Positions 2,787-32,000 of a DNA stretch of 32,000 nucleotides are shown here, in pieces. Positions within the stretch are counted from its first letter, which is position 1; each line of letters starts with the position of its first letter. The notes beneath the pieces are model-generated. The model was given only the letters and a program-made list of their open reading frames with translations, did not search any database and was not told the DNA's origin. The position numbers and the translations under genes are program-made. Source of the stretch: a virus; the IMG/VR virus record IMGVR_UViG_2551306257_000004, positions 3,278-35,277 of that record. One strand, written 5' to 3'.

Positions 2787-5700
2787 GAAGTTCTACTCCT
2801 TAACTGTGTATTTTGACCGAGGTTGCGGTCAACTTTTCGACTGATAACTTTGCCATCCAGATATGTGTTTCCACTTCTGCGGACTTCGTCAATCAGTTCA
2901 TCAAACTTCTTGATCAAGCGTTGCTGACTGGCCACATTGTCAATGCTGTGCTGGACACTTTGAGGATTATGTGACACAGTGACACTGTTCATCAAGTTAG
3001 CTGCCATGTTTGGCAAATCAAATGAACCATCAAGCCCGGTCTGTACCAATTCTGACAATTGACCAGCCATACTTGATACATTGCTTTTGACTTCCTGCCA
3101 GCCTGAGCTGATACCACGGTTCAAACCAAACATGATGGCCAGACCATTATCAACCAAAAGACGTTTATCATAAGAAATTGGACCCTTGTTTCTCTTGATC
3201 CACTCAGCCATGCTCGATACACTAGCTGTGATTTGTGCCCATCCTGCATCAATCCCTGACTTCAAACCAGCCATTAGGGCCGTACCGTTAGAGTACAGGT
3301 TGACACCAGAACCAACATTTCTCAAAGAACTGTTCATGTTATTAACAGTGTTTTGAGTAGATGACACCATTTGTTGCCCGGCAGATTGCCAAGCTGAAAC
3401 CATTTGGCTTCCACCATTGCGTACTGCGGACACAATAGCCGTCATTCCATTCAAAACAGCTGATTTCATCTGATTCATAGTGGATTGGGTAATGGACACC
3501 ATTTGGGTCCCTGCGGATCTGATTGCAGTTGCCATCTGGTTCCCACCATTCCGAACTGCTGAAGCACTAGCAGTCATTCCATTTAGTACAACTGATTTCA
3601 CTTGTGACATTGATGCCTGCATTGCTGTAGTCATTTGAATACCCGCTGTGCGGATCGCTGTTGACATCTGCATACCCGCGTTAGAGATTGCCGCTGTTGC
3701 ACCAGCCATTGAAGACATGATACCAGCACCTAGTGCCGTTACCTGACCCAGTGCCTGACTAGATGCTGAACCTAACCGTTGCATGGCATTTCCTGCTGCA
3801 TTGGCTTGACCGTTAAAGGTTGCAAGCCCTGCACTTGCTACAGATGCAGATGGTCCAATGGTCATGAGCATGGAAGCAAATTGTGTAATAGTTGCACCAA
3901 TCGCCATCAAGCTAGTTAATGAAGACTGGGCACTGGTTGCAAAGGTCATCATAGCAGTGCCAGCCATAGTCATCATAGCTGGTAACGTTCCAAGGCTAGC
4001 TGATAGGGTTGTAAGGGCAGTTGGTAACATTTGAATAGCTACGCTAGCCATCCGAGCTGATGTCGCCATCGTTTGCATGCCCATTCCTGCCGCTTGAAGT
4101 CCAGGACCAGCAGAACCTATTCCAGAGGCTACAATAGCAGTCAATCCAACTGCTACTGCTGCAAGTGATGCACCCATATCTATGATGTTTAGACTTGTTA
4201 CTTTACTGATACCACTAGCCAAACGTTGGAACCCAGTTCCTGCGTTTAAGGCAGCATTACCGATTGAGTCAAAGACTCCAGCTACTGAGTCTAAAATCCC
4301 TGATACCGCTGAACCAAATGACTCAATAATCCCTTGGGCACCACTAAACACCGTTTCAAGTGTACCGTTGAATGTTTCCAATGCTCCTGAAAGACTATCA
4401 ATGATTGGTGGAATAACTGACGCTAAGTCGGTAAAAGCATTGATTATATTTGGTAGTTGAGAAACTACCGCCGTCACCATTTGGGTTATAGATGGAATAA
4501 ATGGAGCCAATGCCTGCACAATTTGGACAATTGCATTTGACACAATTGCAGCAAGTTGGTTAAAAGCGCTCATAATAGCTGGCAATATCGGAGTGACCGC
4601 CTGAACAATTTGCACTGCTGCTTGAGAAATTACCGTAACAACTTGAACAAAAGTAGAGCTAATAATAGCAATAATCGGTGTAAGTGCAGTAAGAATTTGG
4701 GCAACGCCTCCTGTAATTGCTGAAACAATCCCCGCAATTGCCCCACCAACTGCGGTTGCCACCATTGAAAATGCCGTACCAAATGCCACAACTAACGGTG
4801 AGAGCATCGACAATGCGGAAGCTATTGTTGTCATAACTGGGGCAAGAGAAACTAAGGCAGCAACAAAGGCTTGAAGTGTTCCTCCTACTAATTGAACGAA
4901 AATATCAGCTAATCCTTTCAAGAACGGAAGTACCATTCCCTGAACAGCACTTAATGCCACTAATGCAGCAGTTACCGCTGCAAGCCCCATCGCAAACGAA
5001 GCAACTCCGACTGGATTAAGCATAGAAATAGCTCTAGCTATCCCTTGGAATACAGTTGAAATAGCTGACCCAATCCCCTTGAAGATTGAAGCAATACCCT
5101 TTCCTAGTCCGGTAAAAGTATTCTTTACTGCAGTTCCTGCCGATTTTGCCATTTTAGATAGACCAGCGAACGGATTTGGTATTTTCGGAGCTGTCGGCTT
5201 GAATTTACTAAAAGGATTTGGAATCTTAACATCTTTAAGTTTTTTTAGTGCCACGATTGTAAGTCCAATAGCGCCAATAAGCGGGGTAAATGCTCCAATA
5301 TTCAACTTACTTAATGCTTGCTTGATGAAATCAAGCGCTGGCTGTACTTTTGTTTTTAATTCGTTAAATTTAGCAACTACGGCACTGATAGCGCTATTTA
5401 CAATGTTGCGGAATGTTTCAGAATGCTTATAGGCATAAACTAGACCCGCAACTAGGGCGGCGATTGCTACAATAGCAAGACCCCATGGGTTAGAGAGGAC
5501 GGCGCTTATTCCTTGGAAGGTAGCTTTTAGTGTACCAATACCCTTCATAATTCCGGACAAAGCCAGTAAGACAGGTCCAGCACCGACGGCAATCAAGGCA
5601 ACCCATTTTTGCCATGGTGCAAGCGGTAGATTGTCCCAGATAGTCTTGACCACATTGCCAACATTTTTAGCAAAGTTCTGAACCGTTGTCTTGAGGTTCG

Positions 5701-17902: not shown

Positions 17903-18169
17903 TTAGTATTGATTCAGAATGCTTACTACTTCATCGAACGGCAAGCGTACCTTAATTGTTTTTTCCTCATAGGATAAAAATGGTTTGGGTATTTTGAGAA
18001 TTAATACAGTAATATAGCTGTTCTCACTACGAATACCCTCAATACTATCTATCATTTTTTTACATAACGCAACCGAGCCAAGTTTCACAAACCTTGGCAT
18101 TTCCTTCCTAACCAATCTATTTCTTCCTGAGTACGGATACTTCTTAGGTTTCATTACTTCTCCAATCAT
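17903..18169 (-). CDS. Hypothetical early protein.
   Basis: 88-aa ORF. An alternative start is ATG 18154 (MKPKKYPYSG...) after GGAG. The ATGA overlap with the upstream gene supports 18169. Confidence 0.5.
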   Translation of the reverse strand: MIGEVMKPKKYPYSGRNRLVRKEMPRFVKLGSVALCKKMIDSIEGIRSENSYITVLILKIPKPFLSYEEKTIKVRLPFDEVVSILNQY

Positions 18170-27185: not shown

Positions 27186-27450
27186 GTCTGCCCCACTTTC
27201 TAGCTGAACGAACCGGTGCATCATCAGCAAACTTGATTGGTTTCCAGTTTGCAAGAGACTGTTTAACACGGTTCTTCCAGGCTTGTCTATCTGCTTCAAC
27301 TGCACGTTCACATGCCATAGCGATTTTGTAGTCGAGCAAAAGCTCCTGATCTCGTTTCTTCCGCTCTTTCTCAATCTTCTTCTGTTCCACAATGCCTACT
27401 GCCAAGATTGGCACTGCGAAAATTGATAATGATAATAACGCTTCTGTCAT
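27175..27450 (-). CDS. Small membrane protein.
   Basis: 91 aa with an N-terminal TM helix (LLSLSIFAVPILAVGIV) followed by a charged helix. It has an ATGA overlap with the upstream gene. Confidence 0.5.
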   Translation of the reverse strand: MTEALLSLSIFAVPILAVGIVEQKKIEKERKKRDQELLLDYKIAMACERAVEADRQAWKNRVKQSLANWKPIKFADDAPVRSARKWGRHAN

Positions 27451-27758
27451 GCAGAAAACCTCTTTTCTATTTCAATATTTTTCAACATTTCTGCCAATGT
27501 TTCTTTCTTCGGTCTGTATCGATTGCGACTTTTCCACTTTACAAATAGACCGAATCCTTTGTAATCAATAAACACAATCTTATGAGTAGGGTTAAAAACG
27601 TATTGTCTAAAGTCCGGATGCTCACGCATTTCTGCCGCCCAAACTTTAGCCGTTGTAACAGTCAATCCTTCCCAGATTTGGCAAAGGTGTGCATAGTCAC
27701 CAGCTTCTGCCTTTTCAGACTGTTTAGCCGGTCTATAGACTAATTCTGCTTTTGGCAT
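27447..27758 (-). CDS. Hypothetical early protein, possibly DUF771/excisionase-like.
   Basis: 103-aa ORF with an AAAGGGA RBS. The family assignment is from memory only. Confidence 0.4.
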   Translation of the reverse strand: MPKAELVYRPAKQSEKAEAGDYAHLCQIWEGLTVTTAKVWAAEMREHPDFRQYVFNPTHKIVFIDYKGFGLFVKWKSRNRYRPKKETLAEMLKNIEIEKRFSA

Positions 27759-27837
27759 AGCAATTCATCCCTTTCTGTGATATAATTTTCTTAGTTAATT
27801 TTATTGTGCCCCTGACCTCGTCATGGGGCTATTTTTA

Positions 27838-28032
27838 TTAGCTTTTTGCTAATTCGTCCAGACTCACATCAAGAGCCTTGGCGATTTTTTTTACTGTTTC
27901 AAAATGCAAATCTTTAACCTTTCCGTCACGAAGTCGATAAAGCATTGCTGGATCAAGTCCTGCATTCAATGCTAGCCTATAAACCGAAAAATTTTTTTCA
28001 GCCAAAATTCGTTCGATATTTTTCCACAACAT
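27838..28032 (-). CDS. Small XRE-family HTH protein.
   Basis: 64 aa. NFSVYRLALNAGLDPAMLYRLRDGK...TVKKIAKALDVSLDEL is a classic Cro/C1-type HTH. Confidence 0.75.
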   Translation of the reverse strand: MLWKNIERILAEKNFSVYRLALNAGLDPAMLYRLRDGKVKDLHFETVKKIAKALDVSLDELAKS

Positions 28033-28094
28033 ATTGTTTTACTCCTTACCAATATTTATATAATTAGTTTTATGCCTATATAGATTTATATACT

Positions 28095-28132
28095 ACATAT
28101 AGTGCGGAATTTTATTCACATACACTATATGT
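28095..28132. promoter_or_regulatory. Perfect 10-bp inverted repeat, a candidate operator.
   Basis: ACATATAGTG (28095-28104) and CACTATATGT (28123-28132) are separated by 18 bp. The right arm abuts the -35 of the + strand promoter. Confidence 0.4.
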
Positions 28133-28160
28133 TGACAATCTTGCTTTTTTATACTATAAT
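28132..28160 (+). promoter_or_regulatory. Consensus sigma-A promoter.
   Basis: TTGACA (28132-28137), an exact 17-nt spacer, then TATAAT (28155-28160). Confidence 0.65.
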
Positions 28161-28213
28161 AAACCCATGACAATCAGGAAAATAAATCCAACTTTAACTA
28201 CCAAATCTGGTGA

Positions 28214-28251
28214 TTTTCTCCTGTGCGTCAAATATTATGGAAAGGAGAAAA
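28214..28251 (+). promoter_or_regulatory. 5' UTR hairpin that sequesters the Shine-Dalgarno sequence.
   Basis: TTTTCTCCT (28214-28222) is the exact complement of AGGAGAAAA (28243-28251), which contains the RBS for ATG 28256. The loop is 20 nt. Confidence 0.45.
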
Positions 28252-28255
28252 CGAT

Positions 28256-28600
28256 ATGAGCAACAACTTAGCAAAATCTGATATCCTAGCAGTACATAAT
28301 ATGATTGCTGAAGATACAAACCATAAGTTAATGATCCAGACAGCTGCTGGACAATACGTTGGTAAACTCTACAATCCCTCTAACGCAGAGCATTCTTTTG
28401 TATCAGCGATTTCTCAAAAAATAAATGATTTGAGACTTTCTGAATATGATGAAAAAAATCCAACAGCAATCTTTATGGTAGACGTTGAACTTCGGACCTC
28501 TTCAATTGCTGGTCCATTCAAACTGCCGTATGTTTGTTTATTTTTAGATCAAATCCTTGGTGTTTCAATTGGGAATTACGAACAGCCGATTGAAGAATAG
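28256..28600 (+). CDS. Unknown 114-aa protein, moron-like and opposite in orientation to the surrounding early genes.
   Basis: I set the start at ATG 28256 (MSNNLAKSD...), 8 nt after AAAGGAG. It has its own promoter and terminator. I recognise no family. Confidence 0.6.
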   Translation: MSNNLAKSDILAVHNMIAEDTNHKLMIQTAAGQYVGKLYNPSNAEHSFVSAISQKINDLRLSEYDEKNPTAIFMVDVELRTSSIAGPFKLPYVCLFLDQILGVSIGNYEQPIEE

Positions 28601-28682
28601 CGTTTGAGTCTATTGACAAGTCTATCGATGCTCCGATAGACTTTTTCATTTGTCCGCTATACGGATAACGTTTCGGTCTCAT
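28518..28682 (-). pseudogene. Probable remnant of an early gene truncated by the + strand cassette.
   Basis: The ATG 28682 follows GAAAGGA. The first 10 aa, MRPKRYPYSG, match MKPKKYPYSG at the alternative start (18154) of ORF 17903-18169. The rest reads through the + strand terminator and is antisense to the 114-aa ORF. Confidence 0.3.
28619..28647 (+). terminator. Rho-independent terminator of the 114-aa ORF.
   Basis: AGTCTATCG-atgctc-CGATAGACT followed by TTTTTC. Confidence 0.7.
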
Positions 28683-28712
28683 GGTTTTTCCTTTCTATGT
28701 TTTTGAAAAAAA

Positions 28713-28730
28713 CGTTCTCTTTAGTGAACG
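28713..28730. promoter_or_regulatory. Distal operator-like site.
   Basis: CGTTCTCTTTAGTGAACG has perfect CGTTC/GAACG inverted half-sites. It matches the site at 28964-28981 at 15 of 18 positions. It overlaps the cro-like stop codon. Confidence 0.45.
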
Positions 28731-28939
28731 ACATCTGTAAAAAAAATACCCAATTCATTTTTTGAGAATCCTAGTATGCTAGCAACTTTTGCAAGTTCGT
28801 CAGCATCAAACGGAACTATCCCATTCTCACGCTTTGCGTATCGCGCTCGGTCTTTCCAGCCCATTTGTTGTGCCATATAATCTTGCGTATAGCCTTTTGC
28901 AATTCTTTCTGCCTTAATACGCAGATAATTCAAAGCCAT
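28721..28939 (-). CDS. Cro-like XRE-family HTH protein, first gene of the lytic operon.
   Basis: 72 aa with GYTQDYMAQQMGWKDRARYAKRENG. It is divergent from the cI-like gene. RBS AAAGGAG is present. Confidence 0.75.
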   Translation of the reverse strand: MALNYLRIKAERIAKGYTQDYMAQQMGWKDRARYAKRENGIVPFDADELAKVASILGFSKNELGIFFTDVVH

Positions 28940-28963: not shown

Positions 28964-29017
28964 CGTTCTCTCAAGTGAACAACCTTAGTTTACACCTTAC
29001 GTTCTTTTTTGTCAACA
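28964..29017. promoter_or_regulatory. Two operator-like sites in the switch region.
   Basis: CGTTCTCTCAAGTGAACA lies at 28964-28981, just downstream of the lytic -10. CGTTCTTTTTTGTCAACA lies at 29000-29017 and overlaps the lytic -35. Confidence 0.45.
28987..29015 (-). promoter_or_regulatory. Early lytic promoter.
   Basis: - strand TTGACA (29015-29010), a 17-nt spacer, then TAAACT (28992-28987). Confidence 0.55.
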
Positions 29018-29059: not shown

Positions 29060-29088
29060 TTGTGCTTTTTTGGGAACGGTGCTATAAT
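29060..29088 (+). promoter_or_regulatory. Repressor (lysogenic) promoter.
   Basis: TTGTGC (29060-29065), a 17-nt spacer, then extended -10 TGcTATAAT (29080-29088). Confidence 0.55.
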
Positions 29089-29107: not shown

Positions 29108-29839
29108 ATGAGAACAAATGATGAAATTATCACATTAATTGATGAAATAAGAAGAGAAAAAGGAATGTCTATTAGCGAATTAGCAAGACAAGTTGGAATG
29201 GCAAAATCAGGCATTTCTAGATATTTTAATAAAACAAGAGGTTTCCCTTTAGATAGAGCAGATGATTTCGCCAAAGCATTAGGAACCACTTCTGAATTCT
29301 TGTTAGGTGTACAACCAATCTCCAAAGATAATAAAATTCTCGAGATTTACAACAAGCTCGAACCAACTAGACAAGAAAAAGTCCTCGACTATGCCGAGGT
29401 ACAGTTGGAAGAACAGAATAAGGTTAGATCAATCTTTGAAGTTCGTGAGGATTCTGAAGATTACATTACTGACTATGTCGAAGGATTGGTTGCAGCAGGT
29501 CATGGCACATTCCAAGAGGACAATCTCCACATGGAAGTAAGACTTCGAGCAAGCAATGTCCCAGAAAAATACGATACAATCGCAAAAGTGGCCGGCGACT
29601 CCATGGAGCCAATGATAAAAGATAACGATTTACTCTTTATCAATGTGACAAGTAAGGTGGAAATCAACGACATCGGCATTTTTCAAATCAACGGTAAGAA
29701 CTTTGTTAAGAAACTTAAACGTGACTATGACGGACGCTGGTACCTACAGAGCCTAAACAATAGCTATGAAGAAATCTACTTGAACGAAGACGACGATATC
29801 AGAACCATTGGTGAAGTGGTGGATATTTATAGAAATTGA
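29108..29839 (+). CDS. cI-like repressor with an N-terminal XRE HTH and a C-terminal S24 (LexA-like) autopeptidase.
   Basis: I set the start at ATG 29108 after AAGGAG. The HTH is MSISELARQVGMAKSGISRYFN. A candidate Ala-Gly cleavage site lies in LVAAGHG. The catalytic Ser is in GDSMEP and the Lys in NFVKKLK. Confidence 0.85.
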   Translation: MRTNDEIITLIDEIRREKGMSISELARQVGMAKSGISRYFNKTRGFPLDRADDFAKALGTTSEFLLGVQPISKDNKILEIYNKLEPTRQEKVLDYAEVQLEEQNKVRSIFEVREDSEDYITDYVEGLVAAGHGTFQEDNLHMEVRLRASNVPEKYDTIAKVAGDSMEPMIKDNDLLFINVTSKVEINDIGIFQINGKNFVKKLKRDYDGRWYLQSLNNSYEEIYLNEDDDIRTIGEVVDIYRN

Positions 29840-29858: not shown

Positions 29859-30728
29859 ATGGATATCAAAAGAATCATTAACTATATCTTAGCAAGCTGG
29901 AATAGAGTCGCTTGGTCATTATTTATTCTGGGTGTAATTCTTTCTTTTCTTATTCCTCCAATTGGTGGTTTATTCTTGCTCAGTGCCACCATCCTTTATT
30001 TTATTAAAATTAGAAAGCCCAAGCCCAAAAAGAATAGAGCAGCAGGGAAATTTTCTAATGATTATGATCACCACAATGCAAATAGTTTAGAAAATGACAA
30101 AGACTACAAAATAGAATTTTCTTCAAAAATTGTAAATTCAGACGGTGTGGCAATCGAAGACTACCCAAACGTTTCTAAATTTCGTGTTAATCCAAGTGGC
30201 GAACGTTACGATGATTCATACTATACAGGAACGCCATATAAACTTCGTGAACTACTTCTTTTAATTTGGTGGGGAAAAACAAAAAATCCTAGAAAACCGG
30301 ATAGTAAACCGCCACGTTATTTCTATTACGACTATCATTTGGAAACTAAGAAAGTTACTGAAATGTTTATCAAAGATAGTGTTCTAACCAAAGATGATAA
30401 AGAAAGAATTGTATTAACTGAGTATGGTAAAGAACTTTATGATGAATTTGAAATACTCTGGGAAATGCACTCTTACAAAGGTTTTTTGGGCGAATTACCA
30501 AATTTAGATAAAGAATTTGCTGATTGGGATTACAACACATACAAGGCTAATAATAATTTACTTGAAATTGCTCACTTGAAAGAAATTATTAATTTTAATT
30601 CTAAAATGCAGAAACAGTACCCTGCTAGCAGCAAACAATACAAAGCGTACCAGCAAGATATTGAACGCGACATGGAACAAATTGATTTTCTCTTCAGAGA
30701 GCTTGATAAACTTACAGGTAAAAAATAA
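29859..30728 (+). CDS. Two-TM membrane protein with a ~220-aa soluble domain of unknown function, located between the repressor and the integrase.
   Basis: I set the start at ATG 29859, 6 nt after GGAGG. The TM segments are WSLFILGVILSFLI and IGGLFLLSATILYFI, followed by KIRKPKPKKNR. GC content is low. I recognise no family. Confidence 0.6.
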   Translation: MDIKRIINYILASWNRVAWSLFILGVILSFLIPPIGGLFLLSATILYFIKIRKPKPKKNRAAGKFSNDYDHHNANSLENDKDYKIEFSSKIVNSDGVAIEDYPNVSKFRVNPSGERYDDSYYTGTPYKLRELLLLIWWGKTKNPRKPDSKPPRYFYYDYHLETKKVTEMFIKDSVLTKDDKERIVLTEYGKELYDEFEILWEMHSYKGFLGELPNLDKEFADWDYNTYKANNNLLEIAHLKEIINFNSKMQKQYPASSKQYKAYQQDIERDMEQIDFLFRELDKLTGKK

Positions 30729-30857: not shown

Positions 30858-32000
30858 ATGTGGGATGAGCAACTTCCAGACGGTAGATATAAATTTTTTG
30901 AACGATTCAAAGATCCATACACTGGAACTTGGAAAAGAGTAGCTACTATTTTAACAAGTAATTCGAGTAGGGCGCAAAAGCAAGCTCAAAAAATCCTTGA
31001 ACAAAGGATTGCGGAAAAATTAGCTCAGCTCAAAACATCTGAAATGCTATTTACAGACCTTTTCGACCAATGGTGGACTTTCTACCAACAAGAAATCAAA
31101 CGTACCTCTATCGCTTCTCTGAAGGGCAATATTAAAGAAATAAGAGAGAGTTTCGGCATTGGCGTCAAAGTAGTCAATATTGACCCAAAATACGTCCAAA
31201 ATTACCTAGACAACCTGGATTGCTCCAGAAACAAGAAAGAGCGTAACAAATCCATGTTGAACCTTGCTTTTGATTATGCAGTCGATCTGGACATCATCAA
31301 GGAAAATCCATCAAGAAGGGCCAAACTGCCACGGATCAAAAAGACCTTGGAAGATTGGAAAAAGATTGAAGAAAAATATCTTGAGGAAGACGAAATAAAA
31401 CCACTACTTGAAGAACTCTGTCGCAGACCTAGCACATACCGGATTGGGTTAGCCGGGGAATTTATGAGCTTGAACGGTTGTCGAATTGGAGAGTTAATCT
31501 GTATTGAGCCTGAAGACCGAAATTTTGAGACCAGGCAATTGGAACTCCATGGAACCTATGATCATACTGAAGGCTATCGCAATGGCGAGAAAACAACTCC
31601 AAAGACCGTCGCTTCATACCGCGAAACACTCATGACCAAGCGAGAAATGGAAATTATTCAAGAGTTTGAATTTATGAATGAGCTAGAAAAAAATACCAAC
31701 CCACGATATAAAGATATGGGCTACATCTTTACAACCAAGAATGGTGTACCGATGCAAACTAACTCTTTCAACCTAGCCTTGAAGAATGCAAATCAGCGAC
31801 TTGAAAAACCAATTCAGAAAAACCTAACCAGCCACATCTTCCGTCATACCCTTGTCAGCCGTCTAGCTGAGAATAATGTCCCTTTAAAAGCTATTATGGA
31901 CCGTGTGGGGCATGCAGATGCCAAGACAACTATCCAAATTTATACCCATGTTACTAAGAAAATGAAATCAAATGTGGCAGATATCATGGAAAACTACTAA
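30858..32000 (+). CDS. int: Tyrosine recombinase (phage integrase).
   Basis: 380 aa. It has an N-terminal SAM-like domain. The catalytic region contains LNGCRIGE (Arg) and HIFRHTLVSRL...DRVGHADAKTTIQIYTHV (H-x-x-R ... H ... Y). Confidence 0.9.
   Translation: MWDEQLPDGRYKFFERFKDPYTGTWKRVATILTSNSSRAQKQAQKILEQRIAEKLAQLKTSEMLFTDLFDQWWTFYQQEIKRTSIASLKGNIKEIRESFGIGVKVVNIDPKYVQNYLDNLDCSRNKKERNKSMLNLAFDYAVDLDIIKENPSRRAKLPRIKKTLEDWKKIEEKYLEEDEIKPLLEELCRRPSTYRIGLAGEFMSLNGCRIGELICIEPEDRNFETRQLELHGTYDHTEGYRNGEKTTPKTVASYRETLMTKREMEIIQEFEFMNELEKNTNPRYKDMGYIFTTKNGVPMQTNSFNLALKNANQRLEKPIQKNLTSHIFRHTLVSRLAENNVPLKAIMDRVGHADAKTTIQIYTHVTKKMKSNVADIMENY

Follow-up and report, generated by a model that had tools for sequence, protein, structure and literature searches.

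What is a gene with its own promoter and terminator doing, facing backwards, inside the early operon of a streptococcal prophage? This question is raised by a 32,000-nucleotide (nt) stretch of viral DNA (positions 3,278 to 35,277 of IMG/VR record IMGVR_UViG_2551306257_000004), here called the window. The source record is a 35-kb provirus of a siphophage of the Streptococcus suis type, of which the window covers the lysogeny and early region. Nearest to it are Javan589, Javan562, Clyde and SMP, all phages of S. suis. A first-pass annotation had described, between two minus-strand helix-turn-helix (HTH) genes, a plus-strand unit that it took for an autonomous accessory gene. Both parts of this description were borne out: the unit lies between an HTH_3/cro-like gene (28721-28939) and an HTH_26 gene (27838-28032), and relatives keep the platform around it 85-95% identical while the open reading frame (ORF) is replaced by unrelated ORFs. 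As judged from these comparisons, the backward-facing cassette is a conserved expression slot, with different small genes in different streptococcal phages. As anatomy, the finding is solid.

A backward-facing cassette with exchangeable cargo

In the window, the exchangeable ORF (the cargo) is set among the following elements:

27838-28032, minus strand: 64-amino-acid (aa) Cro/C1-type HTH protein, the proposed repressor of the cargo promoter (Pfam HTH_26, E 6.8e-13; HTH_3, E 4.6e-07)
28091-28104, no strand: left operator O_L, TACTACATATAGTG, a 14-bp quasi-palindrome with the family consensus CACTAnATATAGTG, including the left repeat arm 28095-28104
28123-28136, no strand: right operator O_R, CACTATATGTTGAC, overlapping the -35 hexamer and including the right repeat arm 28123-28132
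28132-28160, plus strand: sigma-A consensus promoter TTGACA-17-TATAAT (12/12 match), predicted transcription start site (TSS) near 28167
28167-28255, plus strand: type A leader with the pairings P1 and P2, an invariant loop motif and an alternative helix between the Shine-Dalgarno sequence (SD) and an anti-SD
28256-28600, plus strand: cargo ORF, a 114-aa acidic protein of family phrog_3773 with a predicted Sm-like fold
28618-28648, plus strand: intrinsic terminator with a 10-bp stem (28618-28643), a 6-nt loop and the T-tract TTTTTCATTT; folding z-score -3.35
28641-28707, minus strand: right-hand junction of the slot, with the ribosome-binding site (RBS) and start (28682) of a small ORF, MRPKRYPYSGQMKK...; 97% identical in Javan589 despite its other cargo

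All the features named by the first-pass annotation are present where it had placed them or a few bases away. The promoter, described as TTGACA-17-TATAAT, matches that consensus throughout and is the single copy on both strands of the window, where Markov simulations predicted 0.02; homologous cassettes have the same promoter or an extended -10 (TGnTATAAT). The 5' untranslated region is there too, with a predicted length of about 89 nt instead of the proposed 95 or so. The 114-aa ORF also stands, and its SD, GGAAAGGAGAA, lies 5-8 nt before its start. A GTG at 28223 was rejected as an alternative start because all homologues begin at the same MSNNL. The terminator is unidirectional, with no T-run on the minus-strand side of the hairpin, and therefore early lytic transcription can pass through it. 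Literature searches did not find transcripts of the cassette.

The boundaries of the module were set by pairwise blastn against the window. Javan589 is 94.7% identical to positions 27463-28249, which span the excisionase gene (xis) and the HTH gene and continue through the intergenic region and the promoter into the leader; the match stops just short of the ATG. Identity (97%) resumes at 28641-28707, from the T-tract of the terminator on. Between these conserved stretches Javan589 has an unrelated ORF of 72 aa, and Clyde shows the same pattern. In Javan74 (S. anginosus) and Javan355 (S. oralis) the shared part is only 28227/37-28682/98, that is, the RBS, the ORF and the terminator, with another promoter and leader in front; the terminator is kept together with the ORF in these two phages and in L006-L013 (L numbers are our own handles). 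Since the left platform and the 65-bp right junction are constant in the blastn comparisons, the exchanged unit is the ORF plus the terminator stem.

Morons, known first from the lambdoid phages HK97 and HK022, are promoter-ORF-terminator units inserted between the genes of temperate phages. The cassette has its own promoter 5' and its own terminator 3' of the ORF, and it is replaced among close relatives: Javan589, 566, 583, 253 and Clyde have flanks 85-97% identical to those of the window and other ORFs between them. Homologues of the leader, sought in phage records and viral contigs, extend this picture. The type A leader of the window precedes at least 10 unrelated ORFs, which include the Sm-like 114-aa family (window, L006, L007 and L014), YjzC-like proteins (PF14168; Clyde and L028), a DUF1508 protein (Javan253) and ORFs of 72, 56, 85/82, 42, 84 and 160 aa. 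In the pneumococcal phage IPP16 a KTSC protein is the cargo behind a different, type B leader, and cargo families recur under different leader types.

At the right-hand junction, the N-terminus of the small ORF, M[RK]PxRYPYSG, is kept in Javan589, 74, 355, 7 and CHPC663. Note that this ORF (28518-28682, minus strand) has a good RBS, that its conservation is limited to the first 14 or so residues, and that its tail runs antisense into whichever cargo is present. Another minus-strand ORF of the window (17903-18169) has a paralogous start, MKPKKYPYSG. The small minus-strand ORFs overlapping the 3' end of the cargo were also considered as a conserved partner gene; this was rejected because those of distant loci are not mutually homologous.

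The HTH protein, its proposed operators and the leader RNA

The first-pass annotation had also proposed that the 64-aa HTH protein controls the cargo through a 10-bp inverted repeat. The repeat is indeed perfect (ACATATAGTG at 28095-28104 and CACTATATGT at 28123-28132), and two of the six perfect 10-bp inverted repeats with a spacer of 3-30 nt in the window, where 1.1 were expected, lie in the cassette. However, its arms belong to two 14-bp quasi-palindromes and do not form one long-range repeat. These operators, O_L and O_R, were defined by lining up the intergenic regions beside every HTH homologue, and their centres are 32 bp apart. O_L is kept in all group-1 intergenic regions and has a related form in the other groups; the operator palindrome has no further copy in the window at up to two mismatches. 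An 8-bp core of the palindrome, CTATATAG, occurs at 28077-28084, 17 bp left of the O_L centre, and is partly kept in relatives; it may be a third, weaker HTH site.

HTH homologues are divergent to the cassette in Javan589, 566, 583, 253, 74, 7 and 288, IPP16, L014 and CHPC663. The two-site layout, with the right site over the -35, is present even where the HTH protein is 61-66% identical, as in Javan74, IPP16, L009 and L012 (CACTATATATTGTG, CACAATATATTGAC), and the same layout recurs beside the HTH gene in L045, L052, Javan7, L008, Javan288 and CHPC663. Thus, the HTH gene and the paired operators are co-conserved across leader types and cargos. Because the operator core is similar in all HTH groups, this is co-conservation and not strict covariation. 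From the operator over the -35 and from this co-conservation we infer that the HTH protein controls the cargo promoter, which would be the most economical reading.

The leader is the other fixed part of the platform. We aligned 21 distinct type A leaders, obtained a consensus with RNAalifold, and compared pair counts with slid controls and 500 shuffles. In the consensus, P1 pairs 28168-28171 with 28227-28230, the closing stem starting 1 nt past the predicted TSS, and P2 pairs 28175-28182 with 28215-28223. Within the P1/P2 stem lies an invariant 16-nt loop motif, CAACTTTAACTACCAA, at 28189-28204. Over the 12 pairs of P1 and P2, 94% of the alignment cells are paired (25-53% in the slid controls), three pairs are compensatory, and none of the 500 shuffles reached the observed value. 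The anti-SD/SD helix, formed by 28214-28222 and 28243-28251, is 87.5% paired (slid controls, 62-77%; value reached by 27 of 500 shuffles) and has one compensatory pair, which changes from U-A to C-G in three sequences; when the window sequence is folded alone, this helix is the minimum-free-energy structure. Since the anti-SD segment is common to both, the P1/P2 stem and the anti-SD/SD helix are mutually exclusive. As the sequences are closely related, these pair statistics are suggestive, not conclusive. The leader matches no Rfam family, and no complementary site for its loop, with which it could pair in trans, was found elsewhere in the window.

Most other members of the cargo family use the type B leader, which has a 5'-terminal hairpin, TTGACTA...TAGTCAA, with a CCUCUC loop. 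Pairing in this hairpin reaches 100%, with compensatory changes at two of the six pairs, both from one lineage. It is found (TTGACTAG-GACCTCTCACCG-TTTTAGTCAA, with its anti-SD-like loop) about 60 nt 5' of the cargo ATG in L003-L005, L008-L013 and L022. Type B leaders precede the Sm-like family in oral and group B streptococcal phages, with compensatory stem changes in Javan7.

A strong SD together with a stem at the very 5' terminus is known to stabilise Gram-positive mRNAs against decay. A more ambitious reading, which we offer tentatively and consider unlikely, is that the leader of about 65 nt is a new cis-regulatory RNA of streptococcal phages, in which a 5' stem around the invariant CAACUUUAACUACCAA loop alternates with the anti-SD/SD helix. 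It would gate the translation of any accessory cargo of the slot in response to a factor acting in trans, be it a protein, an RNA or the antisense early transcript. With the HTH protein and the head-on promoter, it would make up, downstream of CI/Cro, a second decision switch.

The cargo protein and the phages that carry it

The cargo ORF of the window is a real gene under purifying selection, with a ratio of nonsynonymous to synonymous substitution rates (dN/dS) of 0.18-0.30 against eight homologues. It matches phrog_3773, a family of unknown function (E 2.2e-23), and has no match in Pfam, NCBIfam, PADLOC or PDB sequences, searched with the single sequence and with a 42-sequence profile. Its close homologues form 50 clusters, and 1.84 billion representatives include 43 clusters of the family at 50% identity. 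It is rare, being present in 4 of 251 Streptococcus species genomes, and its hosts are phages of S. suis, S. agalactiae, S. anginosus, S. oralis, S. infantis, S. thermophilus, S. salivarius and Lactococcus. The protein is acidic, with an isoelectric point (pI) of 4.9 and a net charge of about -6.

Structure prediction, which the first-pass annotation had advised, gave a Sm-like model. The AlphaFold2 monomer model, built from a 42-sequence alignment, has a mean predicted local distance difference test score (pLDDT) of 84.5 and a predicted template modelling score (pTM) of 0.77. It consists of helix 3-20, strands 24-29 and 32-38, an inserted helix 44-59, and strands 71-80, 88-96 and 100-106, that is, the N-terminal helix followed by a five-stranded, strongly bent antiparallel sheet that characterises the Sm fold. 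In support of this, the top 50 PDB matches in Foldseek were all Sm, LSm or archaeal SmAP proteins (probability 1.0, template modelling score on the target up to 0.68). The best matches outside the family in BFVD include a 'putative KleE' and an 'RNA binding protein', and one homologue had been annotated by its depositor as 'small nuclear ribonucleoprotein G'.

At the level of sequence the picture is different. The LSM (PF01423) and Hfq (PF17209) profiles matched none of the 42 family members at E up to 0.1, and nothing in the record at E up to 10; a PDB sequence search gave no Sm-protein match. The most conserved block of the family, FxDQIxGVSxG, lies at the beta4-beta5 turn, the position of the Sm2 Arg-Gly. 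When Sm motif positions were equated by secondary structure, not by superposition, the residues of the uridine pocket (Asp/Asn in loop 3, Arg-Gly in loop 5) were absent: the family has an invariant Asp98-Gln99, and loop 3 is broken by the insert 42-70. The model thus describes a protein with a predicted Sm-like fold that is not a member of the Sm family, and canonical binding of U-rich RNA by the cargo seems unlikely on this model.

The reversed orientation is a trait of the family, since at 27-28% identity the homologues are still lone reversed genes among phage genes. L015, whose phage backbone is unrelated, has a 135-aa member (4001-4408) reversed just 5' of its small and large terminase genes, and therefore the family is not confined to the early-region slot. 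The S. thermophilus phage CHPC663 (Moineauvirus) has no annotated integrase and no tblastn match to the integrase of the window. Of its 52 genes only gp33, the family member, and a small repressor-like remnant are reversed. gp33 is flanked by a 61-aa HTH protein, two operators, an extended -10, a leader, a terminator and the MKPKRYPYSG ORF. The leader of this locus (L091 28155-28836) is a hybrid, which keeps P1 and the 3' end of type A, has P2 replaced by CGATT/AATCG, and carries a type B-like loop with a UCUCCUU anti-SD. CHPC663 thus maintains the cassette although integrative lysogeny is closed to it, and the cassette could be either a recent relic or functional during infection.

Setting, mechanism and known systems

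Read from right to left across the window, the genes around the cassette are:

30858-32000, plus strand: integrase
29859-30728, plus strand: 289-aa protein between CI and the integrase (phrog_17298, unknown function, E 2e-119)
29108-29839, plus strand: S24-type CI repressor
28721-28939, minus strand: cro-like HTH gene (HTH_3)
28518-28682, minus strand, start at 28682: small ORF with the conserved N-terminus
next in this order, plus strand: the cassette
27838-28032, minus strand: 64-aa HTH_26 protein
27447-27758, minus strand: excisionase (phrog_904), followed by more minus-strand early genes

The 289-aa ORF occupies the classic position of superinfection-exclusion genes and has no match in Pfam, NCBIfam or PADLOC. 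Four sites of the GTTC-N8-GAAC type (28714-28729, 28965-28980, 29001-29016 and 29062-29077) lie near the divergent CI/cro promoters and look like a TP901-1-style switch with a distal operator. One of them is at the cro stop codon, where the scan also scored a weak minus-strand terminator (28730-28713).

We think that the cassette is probably an autonomous, reverse-oriented accessory slot of streptococcal temperate siphophages, in other words a moron hotspot with its own HTH-gated regulatory platform. In the prophage, CI would hold the minus-strand early operon off. The 64-aa HTH protein would then not be made, because its gene lies downstream in this silenced operon and has no conserved promoter of its own. 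The cargo promoter, left free, would fire head-on against leaky early transcription, and the cargo would be produced. On induction or infection, early transcripts would cross the unidirectional terminator and the HTH protein would appear; by binding O_L and O_R, the latter over the -35, it would close the cargo promoter and remove the transcriptional collision. The leader would tune mRNA stability and translation: with the 5'-terminal stem formed, the SD would be free and the 5' end protected, and with the anti-SD/SD helix the SD would be occluded. The cargo itself would likely be an oligomer that binds protein or nucleic acid in phage-host or phage-phage conflict.

Several observations weigh against parts of this scheme. 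CHPC663 retains the cassette without an integrase, so that a benefit to the lysogen is not the whole story; from its gene content, a role of the cassette restricted to lysogeny is doubtful, and an immediate-early role in infection would be equally compatible. HTH binding is predicted from co-conservation, the operator core being alike across the HTH groups with little true covariation. The leaders are close kin and their pair statistics depend on few divergent lineages. The Foldseek E-values are only 2e-3 to 1e-2, and the PADLOC defence models gave no match to the cargo at E up to 0.1. Finally, a weak minus-strand promoter-like site, TTGTCA-18-TAAAAT at 28138-28109, could drive the HTH gene on its own. 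We regard this site as a doubtful HTH promoter: Javan589 and Clyde conserve its -10 poorly and the Javan74 group lacks it, so the HTH protein would rather be made from the early operon by read-through.

Among other explanations, those that invoke anti-defence, an Hfq-like protein or insulation concern different layers, either regulation or the function of the cargo, and are not strictly exclusive. The cassette could be an immediate-early anti-defence locus like those of anti-CRISPR (acr) genes and their associated regulators (aca), its promoter firing at DNA entry to make a small acidic inhibitor, and its HTH protein acting as an Aca-like repressor once accumulated. The guilt-by-association signature of such loci is there, in that an operator overlaps the -35 of a strong promoter and highly variable small cargos sit next to a small HTH gene that is conserved; the acidic cargo (pI 4.9) and the intact cassette of the integrase-less CHPC663 also fit. 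We nevertheless consider this rather unlikely, as the HTH gene is divergent (in a typical acr-aca operon it follows the cargo on the same transcript), the cassette has the orientation of the lysogeny genes, and it resembles none of the contexts of AcrIIA5, 6, 20 and 21 that we examined. Identity of the cargo with a known anti-CRISPR was rejected: AcrIIA20 (64 aa) and the RepA-like AcrIIA21 are different proteins, and AcrIIA6 is not beside HTH genes. We know of no documented anti-defence role for YjzC, DUF1508 or KTSC. The insulator explanation makes the ORF incidental, the strong convergent promoter serving in the lysogen to stop leaky early transcription before xis and the replication genes. 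It would account for the conservation of promoter, leader and head-on geometry while the ORF varies, for the unidirectional terminator just before the early small ORF, and for the excisionase directly downstream in the early direction. Yet strong SDs precede the cargo ORFs, purifying selection acts on the Sm-like family, and the recurrence of cargo families in different leader contexts argues that the proteins themselves are selected; insulation as the purpose of the slot is thus quite improbable.

As to the cargo, it could be an Hfq/LSm-like protein that forms rings, binds RNA and modulates phage or host RNAs in streptococci, which to our knowledge lack Hfq. The fold search on the model, which returned Sm, LSm and SmAP proteins only, the 'small nuclear ribonucleoprotein G' label, the precedent of T4 GoF among phage LSm-like proteins, and the position of the FxDQIxGVSxG block at the Sm2 location all point this way. 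They are opposed by the failure of the LSM and Hfq profiles even at E up to 10, by the change of the Sm2 Arg-Gly to an invariant Asp-Gln, by the helical insert of about 30 residues that breaks loop 3, and by the net charge of -6. Moreover, the cargo is freely swapped for unrelated proteins and hence is not part of the switch. Taken with the model, these points make the Hfq-like role improbable. Least credible of all would be a toxin-antitoxin or abortive-infection pair, in which the 114-aa protein would be the toxin and the HTH protein its antitoxin or regulator. A small HTH gene does lie beside a small protein, and an anti-SD element would restrain translation; but the genes are divergent and not operonic, the HTH gene stays while its supposed partner is swapped for unrelated small proteins, the cargo has no PADLOC match, and an acidic Sm-like fold is unlike known toxins.

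If the accessory-slot reading holds, streptococcal temperate phages carry a standardised plug-in socket, an HTH-gated promoter with a structured leader, for accessory genes. The socket would then be a search handle, the genes between the leader and the MRPKRYPYSG junction being candidate conflict or fitness genes; more than 10 small protein families have already been collected in this way, including YjzC, DUF1508, KTSC and the Sm-like-fold family. It would also explain gene exchange among phages of S. suis, S. agalactiae, oral streptococci and S. thermophilus, and the promoter-operator-leader module could serve as a small part for regulatable gene expression in lactic acid bacteria.

How does the slot compare with known systems? 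As occurs with morons, the cassette is self-contained, with its own promoter and terminator, its orientation is independent of the operon, and it is present, absent or replaced among close relatives. Unlike morons, only the ORF and the terminator stem are exchanged here, while the promoter, operators, leader and dedicated HTH gene are a fixed platform for at least 10 cargos. The slot shares with acr loci and their Aca regulators a strong promoter under inverted-repeat operators, a conserved small HTH neighbour and hypervariable small cargos; it differs in that its HTH gene is divergent and inside the early lytic operon, and no Acr activity or homology is known for any cargo. The leaders of aprE and ermC are Gram-positive examples of 5'-terminal stem-loop stabilisers and SD-sequestering leaders. 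The type A leader resembles them in its stem within a few nt of the predicted 5' end, its very strong SD and an anti-SD able to occlude it, and departs from them in its large loop with a 16-nt invariant motif, in being shared by many unrelated phage ORFs, and in having no Rfam match.

The cargo, for its part, resembles Sm, LSm and Hfq proteins in its modelled N-terminal helix and five bent beta-strands and in its Foldseek matches, which are exclusively Sm/LSm/SmAP; it is unlike them in lacking profile similarity, in having DQ instead of RG, in the helix and loop of about 30 residues between beta2 and beta3, and in being acidic. T4 GoF, MotB.1 and Frd.2 form a phage family with an LSm-like fold (PMC12152347), the only published phage LSm-like group that we found in the literature. 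The cargo is likewise phage-encoded and recognisable by structure prediction only, but its sequence is unrelated to theirs; if the model is right, the Sm-like-fold family would be a second, unrelated phage LSm-like group beside T4 GoF.

Morons, Aca-type autoregulation and hotspots of defence or anti-defence genes between conserved flanks were known before, and our literature searches found no description of this streptococcal-phage platform. What appears to be new is the combination of a divergent small HTH gene, paired operators, a consensus promoter and a conserved, bistable-looking leader that serves many cargos, together with the Sm-like-fold family.

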